A stretch of 64,000 bases of DNA from Bacillota bacterium. Lineage in GTDB: Bacteria > Bacillota > Dethiobacteria > DTU022. A model generated the notes under the pieces. It saw nothing but the letters and a program-made list of their open reading frames with translations, had not been told where the DNA came from and searched no databases. The stretch is taken from contig JAWODD010000008.1 in NCBI GenBank assembly GCA_046483445.1, positions 752 through 64,751 of the forward strand, read 5' to 3'. The translations under genes and the position numbers were made by a program. Below, one piece after another: positions 485 through 23,869 of this stretch; position 1 is the stretch's first letter, and each line of letters starts with the position of its first letter.

Positions 485-1459
485 TTGGATTTTAGGATTG
501 TAGAAAGGGTATTTTCGGAAGACGAGACTATGCCCACAATTATGGTGGCCAATATTTATGGAGCCCCGGATGTGCAGCGTAACCTGGATAAAATGGAAAA
601 AATTATCAACATAGCGCATGAAAAGCGAGCTAATATCTTAATTTTTCCTGAACTGACTGTTACCGGTTACGTCTGGGACTGCAATAACAGGAATGAAGTG
701 CGAAGCCTTTTGAAAGAAGGCGAAAACACCCGGATAGCGTCATGGATAAAAAATGTCCGCGATAGTTTAACTGAAGGTAGTGACGGATTGGAATATATCT
801 TTTATGGAAACAGCAGGTTAAAAGAAGGCAAAATGTATAACTCCACCTTTATTTTAAACCGGGAGTTGGATTATTCCGCGGAAGAATACATTTATGCCAA
901 GGTATTTTTAACTCCTGTGGAACAGGATTATTTCAGTCAGGGCACCGATAAACGGTTAAGTATAGACACCAAGTGGGGCCGCTTTGGTTTCATGCTTTGT
1001 TACGATCTCTGCTTTGTCGAACTGGCCCGCCAGTATGCCTTTTTGGATGGTGCTGATGCCATAGTGACCATGGCTGCCTGGCACTCTGAAGCGGTCAGGG
1101 AGTATACCATGATGAATGCCCGTACCGATCACTATTACGGTTTTTTATGGGATTTAATGAACAGTTCCAAGGCCGCCTATAACCAGGTTTGGAGTCTCGG
1201 CAGCAACTGGGTGGGGCTTCACGAAAAAAGCAGGGAATACTTATGGGGTGGCAGTGGTATGTGGGCTCCCTCAGGGATGAAGCTTTTACAGGCTTCCAAT
1301 ATTAACGAAGAACTGCTTATTGTAAGGAATTTGGATATCAAGGGACAGCGAGATAAAGAACAGGATGATTTTAACTACCGGATCGATTTTGAGCAGTTTT
1401 ACCGTAATATGGCGTATGGTAAAGAATGCATTTACTATGTCGAAACCGAGAAATCTTAG
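485..1459 (+). CDS. carbon-nitrogen hydrolase family protein (nitrilase/amidase superfamily)
   Basis: FPELTVTGY (catalytic Glu region) and MLCYDLCF (catalytic Cys region) motifs. GAGGAGGG lies 7 nt upstream of the TTG start. ATG 530 is an alternative start. Confidence 0.75.
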   Translation: MDFRIVERVFSEDETMPTIMVANIYGAPDVQRNLDKMEKIINIAHEKRANILIFPELTVTGYVWDCNNRNEVRSLLKEGENTRIASWIKNVRDSLTEGSDGLEYIFYGNSRLKEGKMYNSTFILNRELDYSAEEYIYAKVFLTPVEQDYFSQGTDKRLSIDTKWGRFGFMLCYDLCFVELARQYAFLDGADAIVTMAAWHSEAVREYTMMNARTDHYYGFLWDLMNSSKAAYNQVWSLGSNWVGLHEKSREYLWGGSGMWAPSGMKLLQASNINEELLIVRNLDIKGQRDKEQDDFNYRIDFEQFYRNMAYGKECIYYVETEKS

Positions 1460-2018: not shown

Positions 2019-2142
2019 AAAATTTCAAATAAGCAAACCGAAAGGGCAATTTTAAAGCAGACTGGTATAGCGAAGCTTTTTAAGATAAAGGTTTAATGTA
2101 ATTGAGCGGCTGGTTTTGTTAGAAGAATTGGAGGATCGAAAT

Positions 2143-2551
2143 ATGAGCAAAATTACCGTGGAACAGCAGGGGCATGTTTTACTGCTTGGCCTCAACAGGC
2201 CCGATAAAATGAATGCTTTTGATGTAGAGATGTATATGCTGTTAGCGGAGGGGCTGGGTAAACTTGATCGTGATTCCGAACTCCGCTGCGGGTTAATCTA
2301 TGCCCGGGGCCAACATTTCACCTCCGGGCTGGATATGGCTAAGTGGATTGATGTTTTTAGTGCGGGCAGTTTTCCCGAGTTGGCGGAAGGATCGTGCGAC
2401 CCCCTCGGCCCGGATCGCCGCCCATAAGGGAGAACATGAGGCAGTTTCCCGCCTGCTCCCCGATCTGCAGCCGATTATGGCCAGCGATGATGCCCGGGAA
2501 GGCGTGCACTCTTTCCTGGAGCGGCGTAAGGCCAACTTTAAGGGAAGTTGA
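2143..2551 (+). pseudogene. enoyl-CoA hydratase/crotonase remnant (internal deletion plus frame change)
   Basis: The N-terminal ~95 aa (MSKITVEQQGHVLLLGLNRPDKMNAF...FTSGLDMAKW) are crotonase-like and stop at 2427. The family C-terminus (PIMASDDAREGVHSFLERRKANFKGS*) lies in another frame and ends at 2551. The central ~150 aa, including the catalytic region, are missing. Confidence 0.7.
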
Positions 2552-2927: not shown

Positions 2928-4592
2928 CTATTCCGGCCAGGCTACAAACCGTCCCCAACAAGACGCAAGTTCCATCCCTTTCTGCAGAAAGCAGCCGATA
3001 TAGTAACGTCCACTGTCTAGATGTTCAAGTTCATTGCCAAGGTTTTCGGCATGAACAATTCCGTGTGGAAAGAGATTGAGGTGCATATCCTGGTAGTACT
3101 TATCGAGGGGGAACATTTCATCCCAATCTTTGCCGAATTTATCAATCAGCTTCTGGTTTGCCTCTTCAAAAGTTTTTGGATGGAAAACTCGCTGAATAGT
3201 ATTCATCGGGTGTTCCATGGCCACACAGTCCACTGCCAGCCACTTGATTTTTTTCTTTAAGCACCACTCGGCAAAATCCTGCGAAGGGCCCGGGTGACGG
3301 ATCATATATCTAAACTCATCTGAATCGGGGCTGTCCCAACCAAATTTTGAGTAACCGGTTTTGATAATTAGAATATCCCCTTCCTTTACGTCAACGACCT
3401 CTTCAACCATCTCCGGAGTATAAACACTGGTATCGCTTACCATGCTGGAAATGTCAGCAATGGCTCCCGGACCTTTCCAGAAATCCAGGGGAGTTTCTCC
3501 AATTGTTTTGCCGCTTGCGTAAAAATGAGTCTCGCCATCCATGTGGCTGCTTAAATGGAAACTGGCTTTACAGTGGGAATTATTCCGCCCAAGTCCAAAA
3601 TATTGGCCACCAACTCGCTTGGTATACTGTAAACTCAAAGGAATATAGTTAGCCCACTGCGGAGTCTGAACACTAAAGGGTATGGAAAGATCGTACATCT
3701 TCTTATTCTTCATACCGTTATAAAAATCATTTTCGCTCATTCCTTCTGGTGCCTGCAGGGCCACCACTCTTGACCATGCTGACTCAACTTCGCAGAAAGG
3801 AATTGGTTGGATCATGATCCAGGCCCGCTGGTTGCTTAGTTCCTTGATCTGACCACCCAGTGATTCTGCCAACAACAAGCCGGCTTTCGGCATGGTGCTG
3901 TGGGTGAGCTTATAATATTCATCAGGAGGAAACATTTCATCCCATGTTCTACCATGGGTTTCTTTTAGCTTCGCTTCAGCTTTTTCAAATTCTCGACCAT
4001 GCATGTAGCGGATATTGGTATTCATCGGATGCTCGGCACATCCGCAGTCGACACCGATCACCTTAAGCTTTTTCTCCAAGGCCCATTCGAAGAATCCCGG
4101 TGCCGGACCCGGGTGACGGACCAGGTAGGAAAATTCTTTGTTTTCAACACCACCCTGAGCATTGGGGTTTTGAACATCGGGCTGATCGTAAGTATATTTG
4201 TGGTAGCCGGTATTGATGATCAGGATGTCATTTTCCTTAACTGTTGCCCGCTTTTCGATCATTTCCGGGGTGTAAAGGCTGTAATCAGAAACTTCATCAG
4301 AGATATCGACGATGACACCTTCACCGCAAATATCTTCAAAAGGAATATCAGCAATCGAGCGCATTCCGGAATGAAAAGCAGTTGGCCCAACCAGGTGGGT
4401 TCCGGTATTGTTCGACCACTCGATTAGCTGACCATTTGCACCCAATCCACCGTAAAAAGACCCGGTAACTCGCTTAAAAAAATGAACTTGCAGCGGCATT
4501 TCACCTGGCCATGGTGGAGTAAAGATGCTTAAAGGTTGGTTCAGATCGTACCATTTTGCCTTACTTAGCAAATCAATCGTGTCTCTATTCAT
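2928..4592 (-). CDS. tandem-duplicated cyclase-fold (kynurenine formamidase/isatin hydrolase-like) protein
   Basis: Two homologous halves, each with ...DIS..VSD.S.YTPEM......V.E.DIL.I.TGY...RHPGP...F.EW...K.....VDC...EHPMNT. AGGAGG RBS. Confidence 0.7.
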   Translation of the reverse strand: MNRDTIDLLSKAKWYDLNQPLSIFTPPWPGEMPLQVHFFKRVTGSFYGGLGANGQLIEWSNNTGTHLVGPTAFHSGMRSIADIPFEDICGEGVIVDISDEVSDYSLYTPEMIEKRATVKENDILIINTGYHKYTYDQPDVQNPNAQGGVENKEFSYLVRHPGPAPGFFEWALEKKLKVIGVDCGCAEHPMNTNIRYMHGREFEKAEAKLKETHGRTWDEMFPPDEYYKLTHSTMPKAGLLLAESLGGQIKELSNQRAWIMIQPIPFCEVESAWSRVVALQAPEGMSENDFYNGMKNKKMYDLSIPFSVQTPQWANYIPLSLQYTKRVGGQYFGLGRNNSHCKASFHLSSHMDGETHFYASGKTIGETPLDFWKGPGAIADISSMVSDTSVYTPEMVEEVVDVKEGDILIIKTGYSKFGWDSPDSDEFRYMIRHPGPSQDFAEWCLKKKIKWLAVDCVAMEHPMNTIQRVFHPKTFEEANQKLIDKFGKDWDEMFPLDKYYQDMHLNLFPHGIVHAENLGNELEHLDSGRYYIGCFLQKGMELASCWGRFVAWPE

Positions 4593-4809
4593 GTCAACCT
4601 CCTATTGATTAAAATTGTTGATGAAAAAAAGATTTAAATGTAGAAACTCTTAACATTAAAAAGTATAGCAATAATTGATCGGAATTGTCAATCAAAACAA
4701 ATTGTGAACCAGAAATTCCGCAAATAAGAAGCAGTACAAGTATGTGGACCCTTACTTAGATTTTAACGAAACGATCAATCGTTTCCGATGTCGCGTTAGA
4801 CAACTAAAA

Positions 4810-6507
4810 TTAGATGGAACTTTCCCGGAACAATTTAAGTATATTAACGGCAATTTCGAAGTTGAGCGCGCTTTCCGGGTTGTCCAGGTTGACCCCGGTT
4901 AACTCTTCAATTTTTTTTATTCGGTAAAGAACAGTATTGTAGTGGGTAAACAGCCTGGCTGATGTAAGCTTTAAATTGCGATTAGTTTCGTAGTAAGCTT
5001 CTAAGGTCTTGATTAGATCACCTTTTTTTGTGCGATCATATTCAAAAACCGGGGCTAGCAGTTCTTCCACAAAGCGCTCCAGTTCGCTGCGGTTTTTTTC
5101 GCTGAGAATTTTGTAAAAACCAAGATTATCAAAAAATATAGTGTGGTTTTGCCTTGAAAGCTGCGATATTTTCAATGCTTCGCGGGCTTCTTCGTAGCTG
5201 CGGCCTATATATCTTAGATCGGAATAAGCTTTGCCTACACCGATTTTAAGTTGCATCTTTTTTTCCGTTGAATTTTGCAAGTAACTTACAAGTTCAGAAA
5301 CTGTTTTTTTCAGCGATAAAGTAGGGTTGCCTTCCTCAATTTCGGTGACCGCCACAATATTATTGCCCTTTACCCCGGCGATAAGATTATTCGTTCCATT
5401 TTGTTTAAGGAAATTGTTAATCGCCCTAAGCAAATTCTCCTTGAAGCGGGGAACGTCCATTTCCATGTAATGCTTGATTTCTTCGACTTCGTTGAAGCTA
5501 TTGTCTTTAATAACTAGTACTGCAGTAGGTTTTTCAAGATTGATATTGAAAACTTGTCCCCTTTTAATAACATCATCGACATTACCAAAATCACAGGAAA
5601 GGAGTATTTCCAGAAATTCGTTATAGTAGTTTTTTTCTATTTCATATATTGCTTTATGTTTGGTAAACTCTAAAGCAGCAATGGTGGCTGCTCTCTCCAT
5701 AATCAGGATATCTGGATCATAAATAGGCTCATTAATTAGGGCAACCATGTAGCCATATTCGTATTTATCAGCGACTATCGGTATCCGAATCGCCATGATC
5801 TTAAGTGGTTTTTGTTTGTCAGAAGTATATTCTAATGAATATTTAACCTCTTTTATATTGCCGAAATGCAGCCTTTCTTTTTTTACTTCCATGCTTTCTT
5901 CCGAAAAGAAAAGTTCAAATTTATATTGATCGGGGCAATCATCATTAACAATCAAGCTGCCCTCACTGTCCATGATCGCTACCGGATTGGAGATGAGTTT
6001 CCCGGTTTCCTTGCAGAGTTCTTCCAGGGGACTGCCATGGAGGGCCAGGTTCATTAATTTTTTATGGGCCTGTTCCAATTTTTGCAGTATTTTATTCTGC
6101 TTGTTAAAGACAACGCCCAGGATAGGGGCAATAATTTCTGAAAAAGAAAGATCATAAGGCACCTCCAGTAAAGGAATTTTACACTGTTCGGCGCTGGCAA
6201 CTACTTTATCAGGTATTTCCTCCAGGTAACGCTTTGTTTTAATGGCCAGGGCAGCGCTTCCTTTCTGGCTCATGCGAGGGATCAGGGTTTCCATCAGTTC
6301 GGGGTATTCGCGAAAAGAATAACCGGTGGTCAGTAAGAATTCACCGTCAATCAGCCAGTCCATAATGTCCGGAACTTCGATAACATTGACCAGCTTGATT
6401 ACCCGGTTCAGGCCGTCCTTGCCGCTGACTACTTTCAAACGATTAACTACATCTAACGACAGGGCTTCCCTGACTGTAATGCCGTATTGTTCTTGCATCG
6501 CCGTCAC
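4810..6507 (-). CDS. PucR-family transcriptional regulator
   Basis: C-terminal HTH ...LFTHYNTVLYRIKKIEELTGVNLDNPESALNFEIAV is typical of PucR_C. It is divergent from the carbamate kinase operon. The start may be GTG 6507 or ATG 6498. Confidence 0.8.
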   Translation of the reverse strand: MTAMQEQYGITVREALSLDVVNRLKVVSGKDGLNRVIKLVNVIEVPDIMDWLIDGEFLLTTGYSFREYPELMETLIPRMSQKGSAALAIKTKRYLEEIPDKVVASAEQCKIPLLEVPYDLSFSEIIAPILGVVFNKQNKILQKLEQAHKKLMNLALHGSPLEELCKETGKLISNPVAIMDSEGSLIVNDDCPDQYKFELFFSEESMEVKKERLHFGNIKEVKYSLEYTSDKQKPLKIMAIRIPIVADKYEYGYMVALINEPIYDPDILIMERAATIAALEFTKHKAIYEIEKNYYNEFLEILLSCDFGNVDDVIKRGQVFNINLEKPTAVLVIKDNSFNEVEEIKHYMEMDVPRFKENLLRAINNFLKQNGTNNLIAGVKGNNIVAVTEIEEGNPTLSLKKTVSELVSYLQNSTEKKMQLKIGVGKAYSDLRYIGRSYEEAREALKISQLSRQNHTIFFDNLGFYKILSEKNRSELERFVEELLAPVFEYDRTKKGDLIKTLEAYYETNRNLKLTSARLFTHYNTVLYRIKKIEELTGVNLDNPESALNFEIAVNILKLFRESSI

Positions 6508-6732
6508 AGCCTTTCTGAGAGGTAATATTTATAAAAGAATAGCAAAAACAGGTGATCATTGTCAATCAAATTGTGGTTTATATATAAATAACAAGCAGAG
6601 ATTTGGTGATATAACCTAGAGGAAATCAAAAATAGATGTTTAATTATAAAAAAAGCCACTTTTTTTGAACATAATAATAGAGAAAACAGGGGCATAATAT
6701 TAAAGTTATGTTTAAGAGGAGGATGAATTAAA

Positions 6733-7674
6733 TTGAAAATAGTTGTTGCCCTTGGTGGTAATGCCTTGCTTAAGGCTGGTCAAGAAGGGACCGCGGAAGA
6801 ACAGCTTGAAAACATTGAACTAGCCTGCAGGCAGCTGATCCGGATTGCCCATGATCACGACCTGGTAATTACGCATGGCAATGGACCGCAGGTGGGCAAG
6901 ATTCATATGCAAAATGAGGTGGCTAGTGAGATAAGTCCCTCTATGCCGCTGGATATATGCGGAGCGATGTCCCAGGGTCAGATTGGCTATCTGCTCCAGC
7001 AGGGATTGAATAAAGAGCTCGCCAGGCAGGGTGTTATGAAAGATGTGGCTACAGTCATTACAAGGGTTCAGGTTGATAAGGACGATCCCTCTTTCCAGAA
7101 TCCCACTAAACCGATTGGCACTTTCTACAGCCGAGAAGAGGCTGAAAAACAAATGAAGGAAAAAGGTGAGGTCTGGGTTGAAGACAAGACCAGGGGAGGC
7201 TGGCGTAAGGTGGTTCCCTCCCCGATGCCTTCAAAAATTTTGGAAGAAAATATAGTAAAGAACCTGGTAGATAGCGGCTGCCTGGTTATCGCTTCCGGTG
7301 GTGGAGGTGTTCCGGTGGTAGAAAGTGAAGAGAGTGGCTATGACGGGATAGAAGCAGTTATCGATAAGGACCTGGCCGGCGAACTTCTTGCATCAATTGT
7401 TGATGCTGATGCCATGGTAATTTTGACCGATGTGCCCGAGGTGTATATTAATTACGGGACTCCGGAGCAAAAGACGTTAAGCCGGATAAGCGTGAATGAG
7501 ATGGAAAAATATGAAAAAGAAGGTCACTTTGCAGCAGGAAGTATGGGTCCGAAAGTCGAAGCAGCAATTAAGTTTGCTCGTAAAGACAAAAAAACTGCAA
7601 TCATCACTTCCCTTGAACAGGCCCGGGAAGCAATTACAGGGCAAGCGGGAACATGTTTGATTGGTGAAGAGTAA
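6733..7674 (+). CDS. arcC: carbamate kinase (paralog 1)
   Basis: KIVVALGGNALL...THGNGPQVG...GGGGVPV motifs. TTG start behind AGAGGAGG. Confidence 0.85.
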   Translation: MKIVVALGGNALLKAGQEGTAEEQLENIELACRQLIRIAHDHDLVITHGNGPQVGKIHMQNEVASEISPSMPLDICGAMSQGQIGYLLQQGLNKELARQGVMKDVATVITRVQVDKDDPSFQNPTKPIGTFYSREEAEKQMKEKGEVWVEDKTRGGWRKVVPSPMPSKILEENIVKNLVDSGCLVIASGGGGVPVVESEESGYDGIEAVIDKDLAGELLASIVDADAMVILTDVPEVYINYGTPEQKTLSRISVNEMEKYEKEGHFAAGSMGPKVEAAIKFARKDKKTAIITSLEQAREAITGQAGTCLIGEE

Positions 7675-7706
7675 CAATATCTGGGTGAAAGAAGGAGGGG
7701 AATAAT

Positions 7707-9257
7707 GTGGTTCTCAAAAGTTATATTGCCAAAAATACTTTTCGTGATTCAGTTTACCTGATGCGCCTTTCCTCTACAGTTAGAAATTTTGAGGGGGTTA
7801 TCGAAGCAGAAGTTATAATCGGCACTGACCATAATAAAAAGTTTTTGCAATCCAGCGGGCTCTGGAACGAAGAAATCGAAAAAGAAGCCGGTGCTAACGA
7901 CTTGATCATTGCAGTAAAAGCGGAGGATGAAGAAAAAGCGGAACAGGCAATTAAAAGCACGCATGAGGAATTAAACAAATCGGTGGAAAGAGAAAGCCTG
8001 CTCGGTGAATTTGTACCGCGCACTTTTGAAACAGCTTACGATAACTTCCCCGGGGCCAACCTGGCTTTGTTGTCTATCCCGGGACGTTATGTGCAGCGTG
8101 AAGCAGACCAGATCATCGAAGCCGGTTTGCATTTGATGATCTTCAGCGATAATGTGCCTCTAGACGCTGAAATAGCACTTAAGAAAAAAGCGCAAGAAAA
8201 AAATCTTTTCGTTATGGGTCCGGACTGTGGAACAGCAATCATCAACGGCACACCGCTTGCATTTGCCAATGAGCTAAAAAGAGGGAATATCGGCATTGTT
8301 GCCGCAGCTGGAACCGGTTTGCAGGAAGTGGCAAGCTTGATTAATAACCTGGGTGAAGGAGTTAGTCAAGGTATCGGAACCGGTGGCCGGGACATCAAGG
8401 CGGCGGTGGGCGGAATAACCATGATCCAGGGATTAAAAGCCCTGCTTAATGATAAAAATACGGATGTTATCGTCATTATCGCCAAGCCGCCCGACCAGGA
8501 AGTAACTGAAAAAGTGTTGGACATAGCAAGTAAGGGTAATAAGCCTGTTGTGATAAACTTTATCGGAGGTGATATGGATAAAGTCCGTTCGGCTGGTTGC
8601 AGCCCAGCATTAACCCTTAAAGAAGCAGCTAAAAAAGCGGTCGACCTGTTGCGTCAAAAACCTGTAGAAGGCGAAGATCATCTTGCTGAAGTAGATGAAA
8701 CCCAGATCAGTGCAGAAAAGGAAAAGTATAAAGAGGGCCAGTGCTACCTGCGAGCCCTTTATTCCGGGGGCACGCTTGCCTACGAAGCCCTGGTTTTACT
8801 GCAGAAAAGTGTCGATACAATTTATACCAACCTTAGTTTTGAGCAGGCTAAAAAAGTTGAGGATGTATATAAAAGTCAGAAGAATACCATTATTGACTTT
8901 GGTGAAGATGAATTTACCCAGGGTCGACTGCACCCGATGATTGACCCAACTATTCGAAACAATCGCATAATTGCCGAAGCACAAGATCCAGAAACTGCTG
9001 TAGTGATGCTGGATTTGGTGCTGGGTTATAACGCTCATCCGGACCCGGCCGGTTCAGCACTGGAAGCAATTAAAGAGGCAAAGGCGATTGCAGCAAAAGA
9101 CGGCCGCTGGATTACTTTTGTGACATCTGTTTGCGGTACCGATGATGATATTCAAAACCGTACTGAGCAGGTAAACAAGCTAGAGAACGAAGGAGTTTTT
9201 GTTTTCCCCAGCAATGCCGATGCAGCCAACTATGTAGCAAAGCTTTTACCCGTATGA
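7707..9257 (+). CDS. fdrA: FdrA-like acyl-CoA synthetase (succinyl-CoA synthetase alpha-like) protein
   Basis: Size, CoA-ligase-like glycine-rich segments (GIVAAAGTGLQE, GIGTGGRD) and position upstream of a DUF1116 gene, as in E. coli fdrA-ylbE. Confidence 0.7.
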   Translation: MVLKSYIAKNTFRDSVYLMRLSSTVRNFEGVIEAEVIIGTDHNKKFLQSSGLWNEEIEKEAGANDLIIAVKAEDEEKAEQAIKSTHEELNKSVERESLLGEFVPRTFETAYDNFPGANLALLSIPGRYVQREADQIIEAGLHLMIFSDNVPLDAEIALKKKAQEKNLFVMGPDCGTAIINGTPLAFANELKRGNIGIVAAAGTGLQEVASLINNLGEGVSQGIGTGGRDIKAAVGGITMIQGLKALLNDKNTDVIVIIAKPPDQEVTEKVLDIASKGNKPVVINFIGGDMDKVRSAGCSPALTLKEAAKKAVDLLRQKPVEGEDHLAEVDETQISAEKEKYKEGQCYLRALYSGGTLAYEALVLLQKSVDTIYTNLSFEQAKKVEDVYKSQKNTIIDFGEDEFTQGRLHPMIDPTIRNNRIIAEAQDPETAVVMLDLVLGYNAHPDPAGSALEAIKEAKAIAAKDGRWITFVTSVCGTDDDIQNRTEQVNKLENEGVFVFPSNADAANYVAKLLPV

Positions 9258-9327
9258 ACGGCCCCGGGCCTTTGAGCAGTTATGACCGTTTGATATTTAG
9301 ATAAACTGAGACAGGAGGGTCGAAGTC

Positions 9328-9489
9328 ATGGATACTCTCTTTGAAAGCAAGTTGAAAGTTATTAATATGGGGCTTGAAGATTTTGCTGAAACCCTGAAAG
9401 AAAGAGGAACACCGGTTATGCACGTGCGCTGGCAGCCGCCGGCCATGGGCGATAACGACTTGCTTAATTTGCTTGATAAGTTAAAATAA
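9328..9489 (+). CDS. 53-aa hypothetical protein between fdrA and the DUF1116 gene (below the ORF-track cutoff)
   Basis: ATG sits 8 nt after AGGAGGG. Translation: MDTLFESKLKVINMGLEDFAETLKERGTPVMHVRWQPPAMGDNDLLNLLDKLK*. It is tightly packed between flanking genes. Confidence 0.55.
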   Translation: MDTLFESKLKVINMGLEDFAETLKERGTPVMHVRWQPPAMGDNDLLNLLDKLK

Positions 9490-9510
9490 ATTCTGGGAGG
9501 TGCAATTCTA

Positions 9511-10812
9511 ATGAGTAAAGTGGATCAGGCGAATCAGGAAGCAGTAAAAAACATGATGATTTCAAGACCGGTTTGGATTGATATTGGCAAGGCCCGGGAG
9601 GTTATCCCCGGCATGAAAGACAACCTTTTTCTCCATGCCGGACCGCCCATTACCTGGGAGAGAATGAGCGGCCCGTTAAAAGGAGCAATTATTGGAGGAT
9701 TGATTTACGAAGGGAAAGCCAAAAGCATAGAAGAAGCAGAAAAAACAGCTGCTTCGGGCGAGATTGAATTCGCCCCATGCCATCATTACAATTCTGTGGG
9801 ACCGATGGCCGGGGTAATTACTCCTTCTCAGACGGTTTTTATCATTGAAGACAAGGAATGGGGTGGTTATACCTATTCCAACATGAACGAAGGTTACGGC
9901 AAAGTTCTGCGTTATGGTGCTTACGATGAAGAAGTAATAAACCGTTTACGCTGGCTTGATCAAGTTTATGCTCAAGTTCTTAAAGAAGCTGTTCATCTGG
10001 CCGGGGGAGTTGATATAAAAACAATTATTGCCCAGGCTCTGCATATGGGTGATGATGCTCATAATCGTAACCGGGCGACCACTTCCCTGTTAATCCGGGC
10101 TATTGCACCGTTTATTGTGGAAACACAGTGGGGTAAAAAGACGGAGTACGATGCACCGCGCCTGGATCTTTCCAACGTATCAGCATACTTTAAAGATAAA
10201 AGAGCCACCGCTGCTGCAGAAGTGCTTGCTTTTATGCACAGCAATGATCTCACCTCGCTGAATGCGATCATGGCTGCCTGCAAAAGCATGGCCCTGGCCG
10301 CCCATGGTGTGGAAAATTCAACTATCATAACCACTATGGCTCGTAACGGAACAGATTTTGGCATCAGGGTTAGCAGTACCGGCGACAAATGGTTTACAGC
10401 TCCGGCCAATGTACCGGATGGGCTTTATTTCTCCGGTTTTAACGCCTCGGACGCGAACCCGGACATAGGGGACAGCGTAATCACCGAAACGGTTGGTGTA
10501 GGGGGTTTTGCCATGGCTGGTGCACCGGCTATAGTTAACTTTATCGGAGGCAAACCGGCCGATGCTTTTGACGCAACCAATGAAATGTATGAGATCACCG
10601 TTGCCGAAAACAGTAACTTTAATATACCGGCCATGGACTTCAAAGGTACACCGACAGGGATTGATGCCCGCAAGGTTGTTGAAAAAAACATTGTCCCCCG
10701 CATTAATACCGGTATAGCCCATAAAGAACCGGGTATTGGTCAGGTCGGTGCCGGTATAGTAAAACCGCCGATGGAAATGTTTATTGATGCATTAAAAGAA
10801 CTGGCAAAGTAA
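9511..10812 (+). CDS. ylbE: DUF1116 family protein (YlbE/AllG-like)
   Basis: Recalled E. coli YlbE strings are matched: LHAGPPI.W..M.GP.KGA, FAPCHH.N.VGPMAG, NEGYGKVLRYGAY, GD..ITET.G.GG, INTGIAHKEPGIGQVGAG. Confidence 0.75.
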   Translation: MSKVDQANQEAVKNMMISRPVWIDIGKAREVIPGMKDNLFLHAGPPITWERMSGPLKGAIIGGLIYEGKAKSIEEAEKTAASGEIEFAPCHHYNSVGPMAGVITPSQTVFIIEDKEWGGYTYSNMNEGYGKVLRYGAYDEEVINRLRWLDQVYAQVLKEAVHLAGGVDIKTIIAQALHMGDDAHNRNRATTSLLIRAIAPFIVETQWGKKTEYDAPRLDLSNVSAYFKDKRATAAAEVLAFMHSNDLTSLNAIMAACKSMALAAHGVENSTIITTMARNGTDFGIRVSSTGDKWFTAPANVPDGLYFSGFNASDANPDIGDSVITETVGVGGFAMAGAPAIVNFIGGKPADAFDATNEMYEITVAENSNFNIPAMDFKGTPTGIDARKVVEKNIVPRINTGIAHKEPGIGQVGAGIVKPPMEMFIDALKELAK

Positions 10813-10871
10813 GATATACTTGGATTAGTTGAACGGCCAGTTTATTTTTAATATGGAGGTGAACCAGGGAT

Positions 10872-11702
10872 ATGCCGTCTTACGATTACTTGAAATGTGT
10901 TGATTTAAAGCAAGCATTTCAACTGCTGGAAAGTAAAGAGCAGGTTTACCCGTTTGCTGGCGGGACTGACCTTCTAAACAACATCCGTAATGGCAAAGTC
11001 AAAACCGATATGCTCTTAGACGTCAAAGAAATTGACGAGATAAAAGTGTTGAGAGAAGTTGAAGAAGGGATGATCATCGGAGCAGGGATTTCGTTAAACG
11101 AAGTAGCCAACTTTGCTCCGCTAAGAAATAATCTTCCCATCTTGGCAGAAGGAGCGCACAGTGTTGGCAGTTATCCGATCCGTAACCGGGCCACACTGGG
11201 CGGAAATATATGCAATGCTTCTCCGGCTGCAGATACTGCCCCACCGCTATACTGCCTGGGTGCATTAGTTAATATAGTTAGCTCCAATCAATCTAGGGCA
11301 ATCCCAATTGAAGAATTTTTTGTTGGGCCGGGTGAAACTGCTCTAAAGAAAGGGGAGCTTGTTCATTCAGTGCTTATTCCCAAACCATTCCCGGACGGAA
11401 AAGGAGTCTATTTGAAGGCTTCCCGAACCGGATCAGTGGATTTGGCCACAGTAGGTGTGGGCGTGCAAAGGTGGGGAAACCAGGTGAAAATTGCAGTTGG
11501 TGCGGTTGCCCCCACGCCGGTCAGAGCCCTTTCGGTAGAAAAAGCGATCAATGAAAATGGCGAGAAGGACTGGGCCAAAGCGGCCAGGTTAGTCCATGAT
11601 GACATCTCTCCCATAACCGATTTAAGAGGGTCTATCGATTACTGCTATCACTTAAGTGAAGTCTTGGTCCGTCGAGGCCTTGAACAGACGATGGGGGTGT
11701 GA
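10872..11702 (+). CDS. molybdenum hydroxylase FAD-binding (medium, CoxM/XdhB-like) subunit
   Basis: FAGGTDLL motif. ~276 aa. Directly precedes the 2Fe-2S and Mo subunits. Confidence 0.8.
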   Translation: MPSYDYLKCVDLKQAFQLLESKEQVYPFAGGTDLLNNIRNGKVKTDMLLDVKEIDEIKVLREVEEGMIIGAGISLNEVANFAPLRNNLPILAEGAHSVGSYPIRNRATLGGNICNASPAADTAPPLYCLGALVNIVSSNQSRAIPIEEFFVGPGETALKKGELVHSVLIPKPFPDGKGVYLKASRTGSVDLATVGVGVQRWGNQVKIAVGAVAPTPVRALSVEKAINENGEKDWAKAARLVHDDISPITDLRGSIDYCYHLSEVLVRRGLEQTMGV

Positions 11703-11704
11703 AA

Positions 11705-12175
11705 ATGTCTGAAAAACTGACCATAAATTTTACTGTAAACGGAGTTAAGGAAACTAAAGAAGCAGCCAGCGGGCAGACCCTGTTAAAATTTATCAGGGAA
11801 GAGCTTCACCTTACCGGAACCAAGGAAGGATGCGAAATCGGCGAATGCGGAGCCTGTGTAGTTCTTTTGGACGGTAAACCGGTTAATTCCTGTCTTGTCC
11901 TGGCAGTTGAGCTGGATCAAAAAGAGTTGATAACCATTGAAGGTTTATCCAAAAATGGAGAACTGGACCGTATCCAACAAGCTTTTATCGATCATGCTGC
12001 TTTCCAGTGCGGTTACTGCACGCCCGGCATGATCATGTCCGCCCGGGCCTTACTTGAACGCAATCCAAACCCGAGTGATGAAGATATAAATGAGGCTTTA
12101 AAAGGCAATCTCTGCCGCTGTGGTGCATACCAGGAAATTAGGGAAGCAGTTAAAGCTTTAGGTAATAAACAGTGA
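11705..12175 (+). CDS. molybdenum hydroxylase (2Fe-2S)-binding small subunit
   Basis: CEIGECGAC, CGYCTPG and CRCGAY cysteine motifs. ATG lies 8 nt after GGGGG. Its start overlaps the upstream stop. Confidence 0.85.
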   Translation: MSEKLTINFTVNGVKETKEAASGQTLLKFIREELHLTGTKEGCEIGECGACVVLLDGKPVNSCLVLAVELDQKELITIEGLSKNGELDRIQQAFIDHAAFQCGYCTPGMIMSARALLERNPNPSDEDINEALKGNLCRCGAYQEIREAVKALGNKQ

Positions 12176-12194
12176 GAAAGGAGGAATAAAAGGG

Positions 12195-14498
12195 ATGGCG
12201 GAACTAAAACATGTAGGAACCTCGTTACCGCGTAAAGATGCCGTGGAAAAAGTAACCGGCAGTGCAAAATTCATCGAAGATTTATATATCGGGCCGATGC
12301 TCCATGCCAAGATTAAAAAGAGCACTGTCGCTCACGGCAAGATAATAAATATCAATACTGAAAAAGCGCGGTCTCATCCCGGTGTCAAGGCTGTTCTAAC
12401 CGGGAAAGAGTACCCGAACAGGATTGGGCTTTACTTGATTGATAGAAATTTTTTAGCAGTCGACAAGGTTCGTTACTGGGGAGAGCCGGTTGCCGTAGTC
12501 GCTGCGGTTTCGGAGGAAGCAGCCAAAGAAGGGGCTGAGATGATCGAAGTTGAATATGAAGAGCTGCCCGGGGTTTTTGATCCGCGTGAAGGGATGAAGC
12601 CGGATGCGCCACTGATCCATGAAGATCTCGGCAACTATGAGATTGTTCCCATATTCTTCCCTAAACCCGGGACAAATATCGCCAACCATTTTAAAGTTCG
12701 CAAAGGGGATATTGAAAAAGGTTTTGAAGAGGCTGATTTTGTGGTAGAAAACGACTACTATGTACCCCAGATGCAGCATGTGCCGATAGAAACCCACAAA
12801 GCGGCCGCCCACTGGGGAGCCGACGGAAAGCTGACTGTTTGGAGCACCGCCCAGTCTCCGAATGTCGTTCGCCAGCTTCTGGCTAAATCTTTTGAAATGC
12901 CCATGCACAAAATCAGGGTTATTTCCAACTATATCGGCGGGGGATTTGGCTGCAAGGCAGGAGCTTCTATAGAAGGCCTGGTTGTTCCCCTGGCCAGGAT
13001 GTTTCCCGGTCATGTAGTGCGCATTGTTTTTTCCAGGGAAGAAGATATGCAGGGGAGCTTTACCCGCCAGGCTCTGTATTCGAAACTTAAAACGGGAGTG
13101 CGCAAAGATGGCCGCATAACCGCCCTGGAATATAATATGGTCTGGGATGGGGGCGCTTACACCGAGTACGGTGTTAATATTGTCCGGGCCGCCGGTTATA
13201 GTTCAAGTGGCGCTTACGACATTCCCAACATTAAAACCGATTCCTATTGTGTTTATACAAACAATTCTATTGGGGGGCCGCTGCGTGGTTTCGGGATGAG
13301 CGAAATGCAGTGGGGCATTGAACGGCAGCTTGACGAAATCGCCAAAAAGCTGAACATGGACCCGTTGGAAGTGCGCCTAATTAACGGCATGAAAGAAGGT
13401 TCAACTACGGCATCCGGGCAGGAAGTTCACCATGTTGCCTATGATAAATGCCTGAAAACCGTGGCTGATAAGATTGGATGGAACAAAAAAGAAGGTAAAT
13501 ATCGCGGCAAGGGTATTGCCGGCCTGGTTAAATGTCCAGCTCAGCCAAGCAACGCCGCTTCTTCAGCAATTATCCGCATTAACGAAGACGGTACAGCTCA
13601 TGTTATGGTCGGAGCTTCCGAAATGGGCCAGGGCATGCTTACTGCAATGACTCAGATCGCCGCCGAAGCGCTGAATATCACCACTGACAGAATTGAAATC
13701 AAAGTCCCCGATACTGATTTTACTCCTTATGACTGGCAAAGTGTGGGCAGCAGGGTAACCTATACCTCCGGCCTTGCCGTAAAACGTGCCGCTGAAGACG
13801 CTCTTGGACAGATCTACAGGATTGCTGCTGATTTGATGGAACTGCCTGAAGATGAACTTACTTTTGATGGTAATAAGATCTACTGGACAAAAGATAAGAA
13901 TAGAAAAGCAACTTTACGCGAGGTTGCCGACAGTTGCAAAAAGTGTACTGGTGAAGGTATAGCCGGGCCAATAATCGGCCGGGGGTCCTTTGTGCCAAAT
14001 AATATGACCAACCTGGATCCGGAAACCGGACAGGGTAACCCCGGTATGTTCTACTGTTTCGGAGCCACTGGTGTCGAAGTGGAAGTAGATCCGGAAACAG
14101 GAAAAATCAAGATCCTGCAGTTGGCCAGCTCAATTGATGCCGGAAAAGCGGTTAACCCGCAGTTGTGTCATGTTCAGCTGCACGGCGGGACAATCATGGG
14201 CCTTTCCACCGCCCTTTTTGAAGAACTCCATTTCGACAAAGGGGTTATTCTGAACCGGAACTTTACCGACTACAAAATCTCTACTATAGATAACACTCCG
14301 CATATCGACAGTTTCGTGATTGAAACGCCCGAGGAAAAGGGGCCATACGGTGTTAGAGGTATTGGTGAACAACCGATGATCGGAGTGGCTCCGGCTGTAG
14401 CCAATGCTGTTTTTGACGCTATAGGCATAAAGTTTAATAGTTTCCCCCTTACTCCGCAACGGGTCTGGCAGGCTATAAAAGAGAATGAGGAAAAATAA
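12195..14498 (+). CDS. molybdopterin-binding large subunit of a xanthine dehydrogenase/aldehyde oxidase family enzyme
   Basis: 767 aa with a/b-hammerhead plus MoCo-binding regions (GGGFG, GASEMGQG, IDAGKAVNP, GIGEQP). Confidence 0.85.
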   Translation: MAELKHVGTSLPRKDAVEKVTGSAKFIEDLYIGPMLHAKIKKSTVAHGKIININTEKARSHPGVKAVLTGKEYPNRIGLYLIDRNFLAVDKVRYWGEPVAVVAAVSEEAAKEGAEMIEVEYEELPGVFDPREGMKPDAPLIHEDLGNYEIVPIFFPKPGTNIANHFKVRKGDIEKGFEEADFVVENDYYVPQMQHVPIETHKAAAHWGADGKLTVWSTAQSPNVVRQLLAKSFEMPMHKIRVISNYIGGGFGCKAGASIEGLVVPLARMFPGHVVRIVFSREEDMQGSFTRQALYSKLKTGVRKDGRITALEYNMVWDGGAYTEYGVNIVRAAGYSSSGAYDIPNIKTDSYCVYTNNSIGGPLRGFGMSEMQWGIERQLDEIAKKLNMDPLEVRLINGMKEGSTTASGQEVHHVAYDKCLKTVADKIGWNKKEGKYRGKGIAGLVKCPAQPSNAASSAIIRINEDGTAHVMVGASEMGQGMLTAMTQIAAEALNITTDRIEIKVPDTDFTPYDWQSVGSRVTYTSGLAVKRAAEDALGQIYRIAADLMELPEDELTFDGNKIYWTKDKNRKATLREVADSCKKCTGEGIAGPIIGRGSFVPNNMTNLDPETGQGNPGMFYCFGATGVEVEVDPETGKIKILQLASSIDAGKAVNPQLCHVQLHGGTIMGLSTALFEELHFDKGVILNRNFTDYKISTIDNTPHIDSFVIETPEEKGPYGVRGIGEQPMIGVAPAVANAVFDAIGIKFNSFPLTPQRVWQAIKENEEK

Positions 14499-14788
14499 GG
14501 AAAAAGCTGTTTTTTCGAGCTTGAAAACCATTTTTTACCAGCGCATTTATTTAGAAGCAGAGGGGACATACTAACTATGAGCTGATTAGTATGGGATAGC
14601 TTTCTTTGTACTGTTGTTTAGAATTCAAACCGCCGGTTGTTGTTTCTTTTTTACGGCGCCGGCGGAAAAACTACTTTACTTTTGTAAACTGGCCATAGAA
14701 TCTTGGCTGCAGGACAATGTATTTGACTATCCAGGGTTAGGATATGCCAAATTAAAGCAATAAAGAATTATTTGGTAGGAGGCGTGCT

Positions 14789-15643
14789 ATGGTACTGGTT
14801 ACCGGAGCAGCCGGGAAAACGGGAAAAGCTGTGATAAAAGCCCTGCATCAGCGTGGGGTTTCTGTAAAAGCCTGGGTGAGGAACTCTTCGCAAATTGAAC
14901 TGGCTAAAGCCCGGGGAGCAAAAGAAGTTGTAGTAGGAGATATGCAAGAAACAAATTTATATAAAAAGGCTGTTAGAGGAGTAACGGCGATCTATCATAT
15001 TTGCCCCAACTTATATCCTTATGAAATTCAACTTGGGCAGTTAGCTTTGCAAGCCGCCCTGGAAGTCGCTGATATTCACTTTGTTTATCATTCGGTATTA
15101 CACCCTCAAACAGAAAAGATGCCGCATCACTGGCAAAAGTTGCGGGTAGAAGAGATGATTTTTGAAGCAGAGCTTGACTTTACCATACTGCAGCCCTCGG
15201 CATATATGCAAAATATACTGACAAACCGGAAAGCCATTACTGAAGAAGGCGTTTACCGGATACCTTATCCGGTGGAAACCAGGCTTAGTATGGTGGATTT
15301 GAATGATGTTGCAGAAGTAGCAGCAATAGTTTTAACCGAAAGTAGTCACCGGGGTGCCATTTATGAGCTGGCAGGAGCGGAAGCTCTCACCCAGTTAGAA
15401 GTAGCTGATATTTTATCTTCCGTATGCAATTATCCCGTAGCGGTTGAGCAGCAGTCCATATCTGATTGGAAACAGAAAGCCTCGGAAGCCGGGCTGGGAG
15501 ATTATCAGATAGAAGCCCTGAATAAGATGTTTGATTATTATGCCTGCTTTGGTCTTCCCGGTAATGCCAATGTTTTACGTTGGATATTGAATAGAAAGCC
15601 TACAAAATTTAAAGCTTTCGCTGAAAGGGAATTCCCCGCGTAA
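14789..15643 (+). CDS. NmrA-like / atypical SDR NAD(P)H-binding protein
   Basis: N-terminal VLVTGAAGKTGKAV Rossmann motif. AGGAGG RBS. Confidence 0.65.
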   Translation: MVLVTGAAGKTGKAVIKALHQRGVSVKAWVRNSSQIELAKARGAKEVVVGDMQETNLYKKAVRGVTAIYHICPNLYPYEIQLGQLALQAALEVADIHFVYHSVLHPQTEKMPHHWQKLRVEEMIFEAELDFTILQPSAYMQNILTNRKAITEEGVYRIPYPVETRLSMVDLNDVAEVAAIVLTESSHRGAIYELAGAEALTQLEVADILSSVCNYPVAVEQQSISDWKQKASEAGLGDYQIEALNKMFDYYACFGLPGNANVLRWILNRKPTKFKAFAEREFPA

Positions 15644-15650
15644 TTAATTT

Positions 15651-16595
15651 TTAGCTGGTGATTAAAGTGCCGGTTTCTTCATCTAATGCTTTGATTGAAT
15701 TGAACAGGGAAGTTATAATGGCTTTTTTACCGGGATTTTCTTTAACATAAGCTACGGCAGCCTGGATTTTCGGCAGCATACTGCCGGGAGCAAAGTGACC
15801 CTCTTTTATATACTTTTCCGCCTCTTCTACACAAATGTGATCCAGATCCTTTTGATCAGGTTGATTAAAATTAAGGGCAACTTTATCTACTTCGGTAAGA
15901 ATCATCAAGATATCGGCCTCGATGTCACTGGCGAGCCGGGAAGCAGCCAGATCTTTGTCGATTACCGCGGCAATTCCCTGCAGGGAACCGTCTTCCGCTT
16001 CAATAACGGGAATCCCTCCCCCTCCTGCGGTGATTACGATTGTCGTGTCCCAGAGCTCTTTTAAACATGAAAATTCAACAATTCGCTGAGGCACTGGCGA
16101 AGCCACTACTCTTCGCCAGCCTCTGCCGGTTTCATTGGCCATTATGTAACCCTTTTCCCGGGCTATTTTTCCCGCTTCTTCTTTTGAGTAAAAAGGGCCA
16201 ATTGGCTTGCTGGGATTGTCAAAGGCCGGGTCGTCTTTACAGACTACCACCTGGGTAACAATGGTAGTGACCGGTATGTTTCTGCTTTTTTGCAGTAAAC
16301 AAAAGCGTAAAGCCTGTTGAATATGATAGCCGATGTAGCCCTGGCTCATTGCTCCGCAAACATCTAAAGGCATTGGCGGGACAATATCCGCGGAATTTTC
16401 GCTGGTTAAGACAATATTACCTACCTGGGGACCGTTACCGTGCACGATGGCCAGTTCGTTTCCCCGGTAGCTCATTTCGGCTAAATATTCGGAAGTCTTA
16501 TAGACTACCGATAGCTGCTCTTCAGCGCTTGCAGGGGCTCCCTTTCTTAAAAGTGCATTTCCCCCCAAAGCTACCACAACCCTTGTCGGTCTCAT
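15651..16595 (-). CDS. arcC: carbamate kinase (paralog 2)
   Basis: VVALGGNALL...VHGNGPQVG...GGGGIPV. Convergent with the NmrA-like gene, with only 7 nt between stops. Confidence 0.85.
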   Translation of the reverse strand: MRPTRVVVALGGNALLRKGAPASAEEQLSVVYKTSEYLAEMSYRGNELAIVHGNGPQVGNIVLTSENSADIVPPMPLDVCGAMSQGYIGYHIQQALRFCLLQKSRNIPVTTIVTQVVVCKDDPAFDNPSKPIGPFYSKEEAGKIAREKGYIMANETGRGWRRVVASPVPQRIVEFSCLKELWDTTIVITAGGGGIPVIEAEDGSLQGIAAVIDKDLAASRLASDIEADILMILTEVDKVALNFNQPDQKDLDHICVEEAEKYIKEGHFAPGSMLPKIQAAVAYVKENPGKKAIITSLFNSIKALDEETGTLITS

Positions 16596-23822: not shown

Positions 23823-23853
23823 AATTTAAAACTCCTTTACTGCTTTATTTGAT

Positions 23854-23869
23854 ATACCCCCAAGGGTAT
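23854..23869. promoter_or_regulatory. CsoR-type operator candidate 1 (ATACCC-CCAA-GGGTAT)
   Basis: Palindrome 32-47 nt upstream of the operon ATG (23822). It contains the 12-mer TACCCCCAAGGG. Confidence 0.55.

Follow-up and report, generated by a model that had tools for sequence, protein, structure and literature searches.

The island and its genes

The DNA considered here is a 64-kb window (64,000 nucleotides of contig JAWODD010000008.1 from a Bacillota bacterium, a small part of the host genome), and our subject is an island at positions 2928-16595 that places a molybdenum (Mo) hydroxylase beside relatives of the Escherichia coli oxamic transcarbamylase AllFGH, a tandem cyclase-fold hydrolase that we call Cyc2, and two carbamate kinases. 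The whole window was searched, and gene families were assigned by Pfam domain and NCBIfam equivalog scores against curated cutoffs. The original prediction, made from the letters of the window alone, had listed ten genes in this interval, and Pfam and NCBIfam scores recover all ten at their coordinates; with one additional open reading frame (ORF) of 53 amino acids, the island holds eleven intact ORFs in about 13.7 kb. For comparison, about 200 related loci (numbered L below) were taken from species-representative genomes and all module proteins were mapped onto them. Their fully flanked sets comprise 15 sister loci, 33 loci with a tandem Cyc2 (at least 6 kb on both sides) and 41 of 80 loci with a single-domain cyclase (at least 9 kb). 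The closest relatives are uncultured Bacillota metagenome-assembled genomes (MAGs), many of them from soda-lake sediments.

At the left of the island, on the minus strand, lie Cyc2 (2928-4592), a metal amidohydrolase of 554 amino acids with two PF04199 cyclase-fold domains (180.5 bits), and a PucR-family regulator (4810-6507; PF07905, PF17853, PF13556). Divergent from these, the plus-strand genes form a single, tightly spaced operon that begins with carbamate kinase CK1 (6733-7674; TIGR00746, 425.8 bits, cutoff 358.25). The main body of an FdrA/AllF-like subunit (7707-9257; NF004760, 478.9 bits, cutoff 433) comes next, followed by the 53-residue ORF (9328-9489), an AllG (DUF1116/YlbE)-like subunit (9511-10812; PF06545, 306 bits), and the FAD-binding (10872-11702; PF00941, PF03450), 2x[2Fe-2S] (11699-12175; PF01799, PF00111) and molybdopterin (12195-14498; PF01315, PF02738, PF20256) subunits of the Mo hydroxylase. 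The operon closes with an NmrA-like NAD(P)-binding protein (14789-15643; PF05368, 103.9 bits), on whose end the minus-strand carbamate kinase CK2 converges (15651-16595; TIGR00746, 402.8 bits, cutoff 358.25). A carbamate kinase had been predicted at each flank. That description holds for CK2, which ends the block, but not for CK1, which heads the operon and has Cyc2 and PucR to its left.

The carbamoyltransferase subunits are recognizable homologues of an enzyme of known activity. Purified E. coli AllFGH interconverts oxalurate and phosphate with oxamate and carbamoyl phosphate, and it shares an operon with the kinase AllK (PMC11326118). The window FdrA is 36% identical to E. coli AllF over 517 residues and combines SucD-like CoA-binding (CoA_binding) and CoA-ligase (Ligase_CoA) folds. 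The phosphohistidine loop of SucD (His246, 'GHAGA') is missing in the entire FdrA family, including the window protein, and we rejected a classical acyl-CoA-synthetase mechanism for FdrA on that ground. The 53-residue ORF has its own ribosome-binding site and a TAA stop; it aligns with residues 506-543 of E. coli AllF at 44% identity and with the final 47 positions of the NF004760 family model (509-555 of 555). Because it aligns with the C-terminal end of both, the small ORF is the detached tail of a naturally split FdrA and not a pseudogene. The same split is found in the sister relatives and in Acidaminobacter hydrogenoformans. Selenocysteine read-through from the small ORF into AllG, which is in the same frame, was considered and rejected, as the TAA stop is followed by a new ribosome-binding site and ATG. 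An opposite arrangement is seen in loci from Spirochaetota and Caldiserica (L146, L155, L159), where the ORF covering AllG is about 1043 amino acids long; in L155 and L159 a match to FdrA also falls inside it, which suggests a natural FdrA-AllG fusion.

AllG of the window is 43% identical to E. coli AllG, 82-91% identical to its counterparts in sister MAGs and 53-59% identical to those of Chloroflexota. CK1 and CK2 are 45% and 43% identical to E. coli AllK, respectively. CK1 ends 33 bp upstream of FdrA and has an orthologue at the same position only in L016, L020 and L022; no counterpart of CK2 was found at its position in relatives. The presence of two carbamate kinase copies is unusual among these loci.

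The three remaining subunits carry the canonical domains of a three-subunit Mo hydroxylase of the xanthine dehydrogenase (XDH) family. The Mo subunit shares Gln220, Arg364 and Glu725 with all of its orthologues; by equivalence to bovine XDH, we take the first two to be Mo-site residues and the last to be the catalytic Glu. The Mo subunit scores below every NCBIfam equivalog cutoff (best NF043082, 577 bits against 780, and TIGR03194, 571 against 995), those for XDH (XdhA/PucD), 4-hydroxybenzoyl-CoA reductase (4-HBCR), CO dehydrogenase and nicotinate dehydrogenase included, and has no named relative at 50% identity or more. Its matches in the Protein Data Bank (PDB) are 4-HBCR alpha (376 bits, the best), CO dehydrogenase (about 300) and XDH (about 220), and the FAD subunit reaches 115 bits against 4-HBCR beta (cutoff 405). 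A place in a clade with an established, unrelated substrate would have told against the original prediction; the Mo subunit falls in no such clade and belongs to an uncharacterised one. The modules of A. hydrogenoformans and Carboxydothermus islandicus contain orthologues that are 52-53% identical to it. At what is presumably the position of bovine XDH Glu802, the window protein has Ala; we rejected this pocket position as a substrate discriminator, as E. coli XdhA has Gln there.

In the 290-bp gap after the Mo subunit, tblastn with the YqeC-MocA proteins of relatives detects a remnant of the YqeC N-terminus (14582-14732, plus strand), broken by a frameshift and stops: its translation ends in LSLYCCLEFKPPVVVSF and resumes as FYGAGGKTTLLL, a stop, TGHRILAAGQCI and a further stop. 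YqeC serves in selenium-dependent Mo-cofactor maturation. At the same place, sister loci carry YqeB (TIGR03309, 355 bits, cutoff 220), a small Cys-rich ORF and YqeC-MocA, with YqeB and YqeC-MocA each present in 14 of 15. The remnant is a deletion scar. With no YqeB and only this pseudogene remnant of YqeC in the window, a selenium-dependent Mo hydroxylase is not indicated there. Some Chloroflexota loci (L053, L108, L188 and others) contain two different Mo hydroxylases or two to three cyclase paralogues. The paired Mo enzymes are about 46% and about 28% identical to that of the window, the more distant one being accompanied by CoxG, and such duplication suggests that hydroxylation or ring opening takes place twice in succession in these organisms.

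Enzymes of the cyclase fold bind metal through an HxG[T/A]HxDxPxH motif and form dimers in which each protomer contributes to its partner's pocket (PMC6117287). The halves of Cyc2 are 41% identical to each other, and each is about 45% identical to single-domain cyclases found downstream of AllG in cultured anaerobes. The C-terminal half (about residues 286-554) retains the metal motif as His346, His350, Asp352 and His356, none of which varies among 14 homologues; it retains His504 and Glu516 as well, aligned with the 'H...ILE' region of KynB. At the motif positions of the N-terminal half stand N62, H66, V68 and A72; three of the four ligands are lost, and the later His is absent. The single-domain relatives, like the C-terminal half, keep the full HxGTHxDxxxH motif. 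Because the C-terminal half keeps all motif ligands and the N-terminal half is degenerate, Cyc2 is a fused, covalent pseudo-dimer with one intact metal site.

Foldseek, run with a low-confidence model of Cyc2, matched only isatin hydrolase, kynurenine formamidase and related hydrolases. Cyc2 is not assigned to KynB: it scores 61.6 bits against TIGR03035 (cutoff 223), and its conserved neighbour is AllG. Across Bacillota, Chloroflexota, Acidobacteriota, the PVC group and Myxococcota (loci L032-L111) Cyc2 is 71-86% identical, and its neighbours in the same loci are less conserved (AllG 53-59%, FdrA 40-45%). This high conservation reflects either unusually strong constraint or recent horizontal spread. 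In sister genomes the tandem Cyc2 lies on a separate contig, downstream of a same-strand block (L032-L039, L114-L116) that encodes an MttB-family methyltransferase, a hydantoinase_A-like protein, a pterin-binding protein and another MttB. The arrangement could point to a further setting in which this enzyme acts, or to a substrate that is N-methylated.

The top-scoring promoter candidate of the region is a sigma-70-like site for Cyc2 on the minus strand (4662-4691; TTGACA-18-TATACT with an extended -10), which matches the consensus at 11 of 12 positions and is a consensus match only. An Rfam scan found no riboswitch in the window at gathering thresholds, nor in the island at E<=1 or in seven related loci, and no motif common to four intergenic regions beat shuffled controls as a shared PucR operator.

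A rearranged version of a widespread module

In the sister loci, the regulator PucR separates two divergent arms. On one side lie a family III CoA-transferase, AllH and an NCS2 permease, and on the other FdrA, its tail ORF, AllG, the FAD, iron-sulfur and Mo subunits, YqeB, the Cys-rich ORF and YqeC-MocA. Sister MAGs keep the segment from PucR through FdrA, tail, AllG and the three hydroxylase subunits at 65-91% identity. All 15 fully flanked sister loci have FdrA and the three hydroxylase subunits, 14 have the NCS2 permease, 14 have PucR (at the same position as in the window) and 12 have AllH; PucR is found in the loci of cultured organisms as well. Measured against this layout, the losses of the window comprise the CoA-transferase, AllH and the permease at the left end of the island and YqeB/YqeC at its right end; Cyc2, CK1, NmrA and CK2 are gains. 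The junction between PucR and Cyc2 also occurs in an independent contig from another sample (Logan run SRR16248216), where Cyc2 is 92% and PucR 85% identical, and because of this reproduction we regard it as real and fixed in a sub-lineage. A truncated enoyl-CoA hydratase fragment (2116-2427, plus strand, 103 amino acids, with just the N-terminal part of its domain) borders the island on the left and is a second sign of rearrangement. The island is not the ancestral layout but a rearranged, lineage-specific version of a catabolic module that is widespread among anaerobes.

Beyond the sister group, the module occurs with two forms of cyclase. In MAGs of Chloroflexota, the PVC group and others, a tandem Cyc2 directly follows FdrA-AllG, often with NmrA and one of two Mo-hydroxylase types next. 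Among the 33 fully flanked tandem loci, AllG is present in 18, the Mo subunit in 17 and FdrA in 16. NmrA orthologues, 45-58% identical, are found in 8 of these 33 loci as opposed to 1 of the 80 single-domain loci; NmrA goes only with the tandem-cyclase variant. The single-domain cyclase of A. hydrogenoformans and C. islandicus (261-262 amino acids, full metal motif) comes immediately after AllG, and the survey of 80 such loci extends over many lineages, including Clostridia, Negativicutes, Moorella, Spirochaetota, Thermotogota, Synergistota, Chloroflexota, Deltaproteobacteria and one Bathyarchaeia MAG. Of its 41 fully flanked members, 32 have AllG, 31 FdrA, 28 the Mo subunit and 21 an NCS2 permease. 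AllG lies directly upstream of the cyclase in 32 of 32 AllG-bearing flanked loci and in 50 of 51 across all 80, and ORF clustering places AllH in 39 of the single-domain loci, a frequency equal to that of FdrA.

Clustering of this kind is far beyond chance, and the core of FdrA, AllG, (AllH) and cyclase with a Mo hydroxylase is a real and ancient functional unit, which usually also has a nucleobase transporter and a PucR regulator. That the window unites the same families in a different order points to selection for their linkage. The original prediction, which treated these genes as one co-conserved set, is borne out to this extent: FdrA, AllG, the cyclase and the Mo hydroxylase recur together in about 200 loci of many phyla. 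Tandem-type loci also share downstream enzymes with the single-domain loci, namely CoA-transferase (17), CN-hydrolase (17), amidase (7) and thiolase (5). A triad of a 241-residue protein (u241), a thiolase and a DUF35/ChsH2 zinc-ribbon protein lies within the module in L124, L126, L143, L146, L155, L159, L167 and others; the three families occur in 16, 16 and 10 loci, respectively, and largely alternate with the CoA-transferase or a biotin-dependent decarboxylase. The u241 protein has no Pfam match and no PDB match.

Some variants depart from the common arrangement. The single-domain cyclase of the Bathyarchaeia MAG (L163), 63% identical, lacks FdrA and AllG neighbours. Two gut-associated loci, L139 (Clostridium sp. 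OF09-36) and L140 (a Lachnospiraceae MAG), carry a variant without the Mo hydroxylase, in which PucR stands beside AllH-FdrA-AllG-cyclase, 8-oxoguanine-deaminase-like and cytosine-deaminase-like genes, DUF6198, a short-chain fatty acid transporter, a carbamate kinase and an NCS2 permease of the Gln type. The next gene in L139, the locus of this pair whose unlabelled genes were annotated, resembles orotidine 5'-monophosphate decarboxylase.

The genes around the island (FxsA, an MscS-like channel, a 2-hydroxyacid dehydrogenase and others) are unrelated to it, with one possible exception. A CN-hydrolase of the nitrilase/amidase superfamily (485-1459, plus strand; PF00795, 80 bits) matches a hidden Markov model (HMM) of module-linked CN-hydrolases at E=1e-24 with an identity of only 27-29%, and FxsA and the enoyl-CoA hydratase fragment stand between it and the island; it may be an accessory amidase of the module, and its membership is uncertain. 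Farther along the window are a heliorhodopsin gene (32224-33024, minus strand; PF18761, 318 bits) adjoining TrkA/TrkH potassium-uptake genes, in what appears to be the genome of an anaerobic soda-lake Bacillota, a CheB-CheR-PAS fusion protein of 912 amino acids (40023-42761, plus strand) and a bacterial tocopherol-cyclase-like protein (56807-57805, plus strand; PF14249, 104 bits). A kynureninase-like pyridoxal phosphate enzyme (KYNU_C and Aminotran_5) lies beside a polyferredoxin/FNR-like oxidoreductase (22332-25521, minus strand). We rejected a link between Cyc2 and this kynureninase-like gene some 20 kb away, as the pair is not linked in relatives.

A proposed pathway for pyrimidine fermentation

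The best explanation of these observations, to which we assign a probability of about 0.5, is that the island is a rearranged copy of an anaerobe module that would convert uracil or thymine through barbiturate and ureidomalonate to carbamoyl phosphate and malonamate, and the carbamoyl phosphate to ATP. Each step is proposed from homology and gene context. Uracil or thymine would be taken up or, in some hosts, cytosine would be taken up and deaminated first. The Mo enzyme would then hydroxylate a pyrimidine-type ring with oxygen from water, most likely producing barbiturate from uracil and 5-methylbarbiturate from thymine, and the cyclase-fold enzyme would open the ring hydrolytically to the N-acyl-urea 3-oxo-3-ureidopropanoate (ureidomalonate). 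This compound is the homologue, longer by one CH2, of oxalurate, the substrate of E. coli AllFGH. With phosphate, the AllFG(H)-like enzyme would cleave it to carbamoyl phosphate and malonamate, and the carbamate kinases would use carbamoyl phosphate and ADP to form ATP, NH3 and CO2. The carbon skeleton may, in other genomes, pass through an amidase or CN-hydrolase and a family III CoA-transferase, and then either a Na+-pumping complex of the (methyl)malonyl-CoA decarboxylase type or the thiolase/DUF35 pair. The window would encode the steps from hydroxylation through ATP formation and the regulator, without AllH, a transporter, a CoA-transferase, YqeB/YqeC or the downstream enzymes; if the pathway is complete, AllH, the transporter, the CoA-transferase and YqeB/YqeC must therefore lie elsewhere in the genome.

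The general scheme of hydroxylation, ring opening, carbamoyl transfer and ATP formation is probably correct. The original prediction had already proposed this order, and its first three steps are supported by gene context; the fourth fares less well, as the kinase is not co-conserved. It had also held that the substrate could not be read from the sequence. Comparative context goes further than that and narrows the class towards pyrimidines and away from purines or oxalurate, because of the permeases, deaminase and decarboxylase found in related loci.

Three unrelated transporter families of nucleobase or ureide type (NCS2, NCS1 and BMP-type ATP-binding cassette, ABC, transporters) are attached to module loci. 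Permease specificity depends on a Glu/Gln position in the NAT motif (PMC5972032). This position is of the Glu type in 37 of the 40 module NCS2 permeases with a recognizable motif, and Gln in XanQ and UacT; E. coli UraA and the module permease of C. islandicus are 60% identical and share one and the same motif, TYGENIGVMAITR. In nine loci, a cytosine-deaminase-like Amidohydro_3 gene directly follows the cyclase (PRK07572, 394 bits, below the cutoff of 438). In six loci, the cyclase is directly preceded by a biotin-dependent membrane decarboxylase encoded by four genes (Carboxyl_trans, OAD-gamma, biotin carrier, OAD-beta). The closest match of its alpha subunit is methylmalonyl-CoA decarboxylase alpha (755 bits, below cutoff), and its beta subunit is that of a Na+-translocating decarboxylase (514 bits, cutoff 190). 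Family III CoA-transferases, CN-hydrolase or amidase-signature enzymes and the u241-thiolase-DUF35 triad recur as alternatives. In the classical oxidative route, barbiturate is converted by way of 3-oxo-3-ureidopropanoate to malonate (PMC3758960), and the accessory genes of the module would fit a C3 or C4 dicarboxylate end product such as malonate or methylmalonate. The assignment to pyrimidines is nonetheless tentative, and we would place it a little short of even odds.

Several observations weigh against this interpretation. All three of AllF, AllG and AllH are required for the E. coli oxamic transcarbamylase (PMC11326118), and of the E. coli core that had been predicted here (fdrA-ylbE-ylbF with a kinase), FdrA, AllG and the kinases are present but AllH/YlbF (DUF2877) is absent from all 64 kb: tblastn gave no match, and a profile HMM based on over 60 AllH sequences from the module gave none at E<=10 in a six-frame translation in which control HMMs recovered AllG at 654 bits and the cyclase at 588. 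AllH may lie outside the window. Carbamate kinase is seldom linked to the module elsewhere (3 of 15 sister, 1 of 33 tandem and 2 of 41 single-domain loci, all fully flanked), and where it is present it sits inside the module (the window, C. islandicus, L125, L139, L140, L146, L190). Because it is so rarely co-conserved, the ATP-yielding step is either specific to the window genome and a few others or, in the remaining ones, encoded elsewhere. The pyrimidine pointers all come from other genomes, mostly those with a single-domain cyclase, and the window has no transporter. BMP-type ABC transporters, NmrA and a second type of Mo enzyme, associated with CoxG, are the usual companions of the tandem-Cyc2 variant, which may act on a related but different substrate. 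The sister-MAG permease is nearer overall to UacT than to UraA, despite its Glu-type motif. The Mo pocket motifs yield no substrate call, and the AlphaFold model of Cyc2, built from a shallow alignment of near-identical sequences, is poor (pLDDT 62, with active-site loops below 50). Finally, the roles of NmrA, u241 and the thiolase/DUF35 pair are not explained by this reading.

Among other explanations, a purine or ureide route would have a xanthine or purine hydroxylase, a cyclase that opens xanthine or a ureide of the hydantoin or parabanate type, cleavage of oxalurate or a ureido-imidazole by FdrA/AllG(/AllH), and ATP made by the kinases. PucR regulators and YqeB/YqeC selenium maturation genes both have purine precedents, the known clients of the latter being purine and nicotinate hydroxylases, and the identities of FdrA and AllG to subunits of the E. 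coli oxalurate enzyme point the same way. For the permease of the sister MAGs, the xanthine-permease subfamily model gives the top score (263 bits, short of its cutoff), and for the module CoA-transferases the oxalate CoA-transferase model gives the top score or nearly so, again short of cutoff. Some loci have transporters of the BMP and NCS1 types, and the gut variant L139 combines a Gln-type permease with an 8-oxoguanine-deaminase-like gene. We consider this route unlikely, given that allantoinase, allantoate amidohydrolase and ureidoglycolate dehydrogenase are absent from the window and not recurrent in the roughly 200 loci: neither the window nor any of 82 module loci contains a match to E. 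coli AllD, the last of these, and no allantoinase-type or AllC-type family is among the recurrent clusters. No enzyme is known here for the anaerobic conversion of urate to allantoin, neither an oxalyl-CoA decarboxylase nor genes of the known 2,8-dioxopurine pathway were seen, and the (methyl)malonyl-CoA-type decarboxylase, the UraA-like Glu-type permeases and the cytosine-deaminase-like genes do not fit oxalurate, oxamate or oxalate. The same logic could instead serve another cyclic ureide or N-heterocycle (hydantoins, N-substituted hydantoins, dihydroxypyrimidine analogues, s-triazine-derived rings or modified bases), with tandem Cyc2 and NmrA perhaps having a substrate of their own. This would account for the separate accessory set of the tandem variant (NmrA, the type-B Mo enzyme with CoxG, the BMP ABC transporter), for the paralogous cyclases or double Mo enzymes of some loci, for the methyltransferases and hydantoinase_A-like protein beside Cyc2 in sister MAGs and for AtzE/allophanate-hydrolase-like amidases in some loci. 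We hold it to be more doubtful still, as the downstream enzymes are common to tandem and single-domain loci, and the two cyclase forms, about 45% identical and with the same active-site motif, suggest closely related chemistry.

Two further readings dispense with part of the scheme. FdrA/AllG might be an enzyme resembling NDP-forming acyl-CoA synthetases that conserves the energy of thioesters made by the CoA-transferase or thiolase, with the kinases as unrelated neighbours. The CoA_binding and Ligase_CoA domains of FdrA, the frequency of CoA-transferase III and thiolase/DUF35 genes nearby and the rarity of module-linked carbamate kinase are in keeping with this, but the FdrA family lacks the SucD phosphohistidine loop, purified E. 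coli AllFGH is a carbamoyltransferase (PMC11326118), and carbamate kinase, when present, is inside the module, as with CK1 just upstream of FdrA; such a function is improbable. That the island is an eroding, non-functional mosaic left by rearrangements seems equally remote or slightly more so. The YqeC scar, the enoyl-CoA hydratase fragment and the loss of AllH, CoA-transferase, permease and YqeB relative to sister genomes would all be expected of decay. Against it stand eleven intact ORFs highly similar to functional-looking orthologues, a strong promoter-like site at Cyc2, a PucR-Cyc2 junction kept in a second genome at 85-92% protein identity, and a relocation that gathered the functionally linked Cyc2, NmrA and two kinases, which is the opposite of decay.

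Most of the environmental AllFGH homologues surveyed sit with a Mo hydroxylase and a dedicated cyclase-fold hydrolase, in many anaerobic phyla and in cultured and gut-associated species as well. If the pyrimidine pathway is correct, it would assign genes to the orphan uracil/thymine dehydrogenase activity, provide a second, unrelated barbiturase and widen the substrate range of the new transcarbamoylase family. Pyrimidines would also join the short list of fermentations in anaerobes that depend on carbamoyl phosphate for substrate-level phosphorylation, and pyrimidine fermentation would be widespread as a source of energy, in soda-lake Bacillota as well as in Chloroflexota, Spirochaetota, Moorella and gut Clostridia. 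Even if our guess at the substrate is wrong, the module is a well-defined target of about ten co-evolving families with several cultivable hosts, among them A. hydrogenoformans, C. islandicus, Moorella naiadis, Clostridium rhizosphaerae, Maledivibacter halophilus and Clostridium sp. OF09-36.

Comparison with known systems

Our literature search, whose coverage did not extend to subscription journals, turned up no account of this module. Familiar enzyme families and a familiar overall logic meet here in a new combination, with a new role for the cyclase fold and a probable substrate that is new as well. Taken jointly, we advance with rather more doubt than for the substrate itself that the Mo enzyme is a uracil/thymine dehydrogenase, the cyclase a non-homologous replacement of barbiturase and the AllFGH homologue a ureidomalonate carbamoyltransferase, with Na+ pumped in some hosts by decarboxylation of malonyl- or methylmalonyl-CoA.

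The nearest precedent is allFGHK of E. coli, part of the allantoin pathway, in which AllFGH was recognised as an enzyme in 2024 (Kim & Kim 2024, PMC11326118). Like the window, it has AllF, AllG and a carbamate kinase in one operon, and the same chemistry is presumed, in which phosphate splits an N-acyl-urea and the resulting carbamoyl phosphate yields ATP. Unlike it, the window has FdrA in two ORFs and no AllH, AllB, AllC, AllD or AllE; its module is linked to a Mo hydroxylase and a cyclase-fold hydrolase, and the substrate is probably not oxalurate. The reductive uric acid or 2,8-dioxopurine pathway of gut anaerobes (XdhD, YgfK, SsnA, HyuA, YgeW, YgeY, YgeX, YqeA) is likewise anaerobic and combines an XDH-family Mo enzyme, ring opening by amidohydrolases, ureido phosphorolysis and ATP from carbamate kinase (PMC12507026; bioRxiv 10.1101/2025.04.24.650524). 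It differs in its YgeW of the ornithine transcarbamoylase fold, its ring openers of the amidohydrolase superfamily, its reductive Mo enzyme and its conversion of diaminopropionate to pyruvate. The YqeB/YqeC maturation set, linked to it in some hosts, is the sole family shared beyond the Mo enzyme and the kinase, and we rejected membership of the island in this pathway because the gene families differ.

KynB and isatin hydrolase share with Cyc2 the PF04199 fold, the HxG[T/A]HxDxPxH motif and the cross-protomer pocket, and isatin hydrolase is itself a ring-opening cyclic-amide hydrolase (PMC4243253, PMC6117287). Unlike these enzymes, to which it is about 12-18% identical in the Foldseek alignment, Cyc2 consists of two fused copies with one degenerate metal site, and its genomic partner is AllG as opposed to genes of tryptophan or indole catabolism.

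The classical oxidative pyrimidine pathway begins, as we propose for the module, with oxidation of the pyrimidine ring and passes through barbiturate and 3-oxo-3-ureidopropanoate to malonate (Soong et al., per PMC3758960). It has been found in a few aerobic bacteria and relies on uracil/thymine dehydrogenase, the barbiturase Bar (of the AtzD 'Toblerone' fold) and ureidomalonase (PMC3758960). Neither a barbiturase of the AtzD/Bar fold nor a ureidomalonase is among the island ORFs or the annotated recurrent clusters of the about 200 loci, in which no direct search with a barbiturase reference was made. The classical pathway releases the ureido group hydrolytically as urea and conserves no energy, whereas the module would use a cyclase-fold enzyme and AllFGH-type phosphorolysis in place of these steps.

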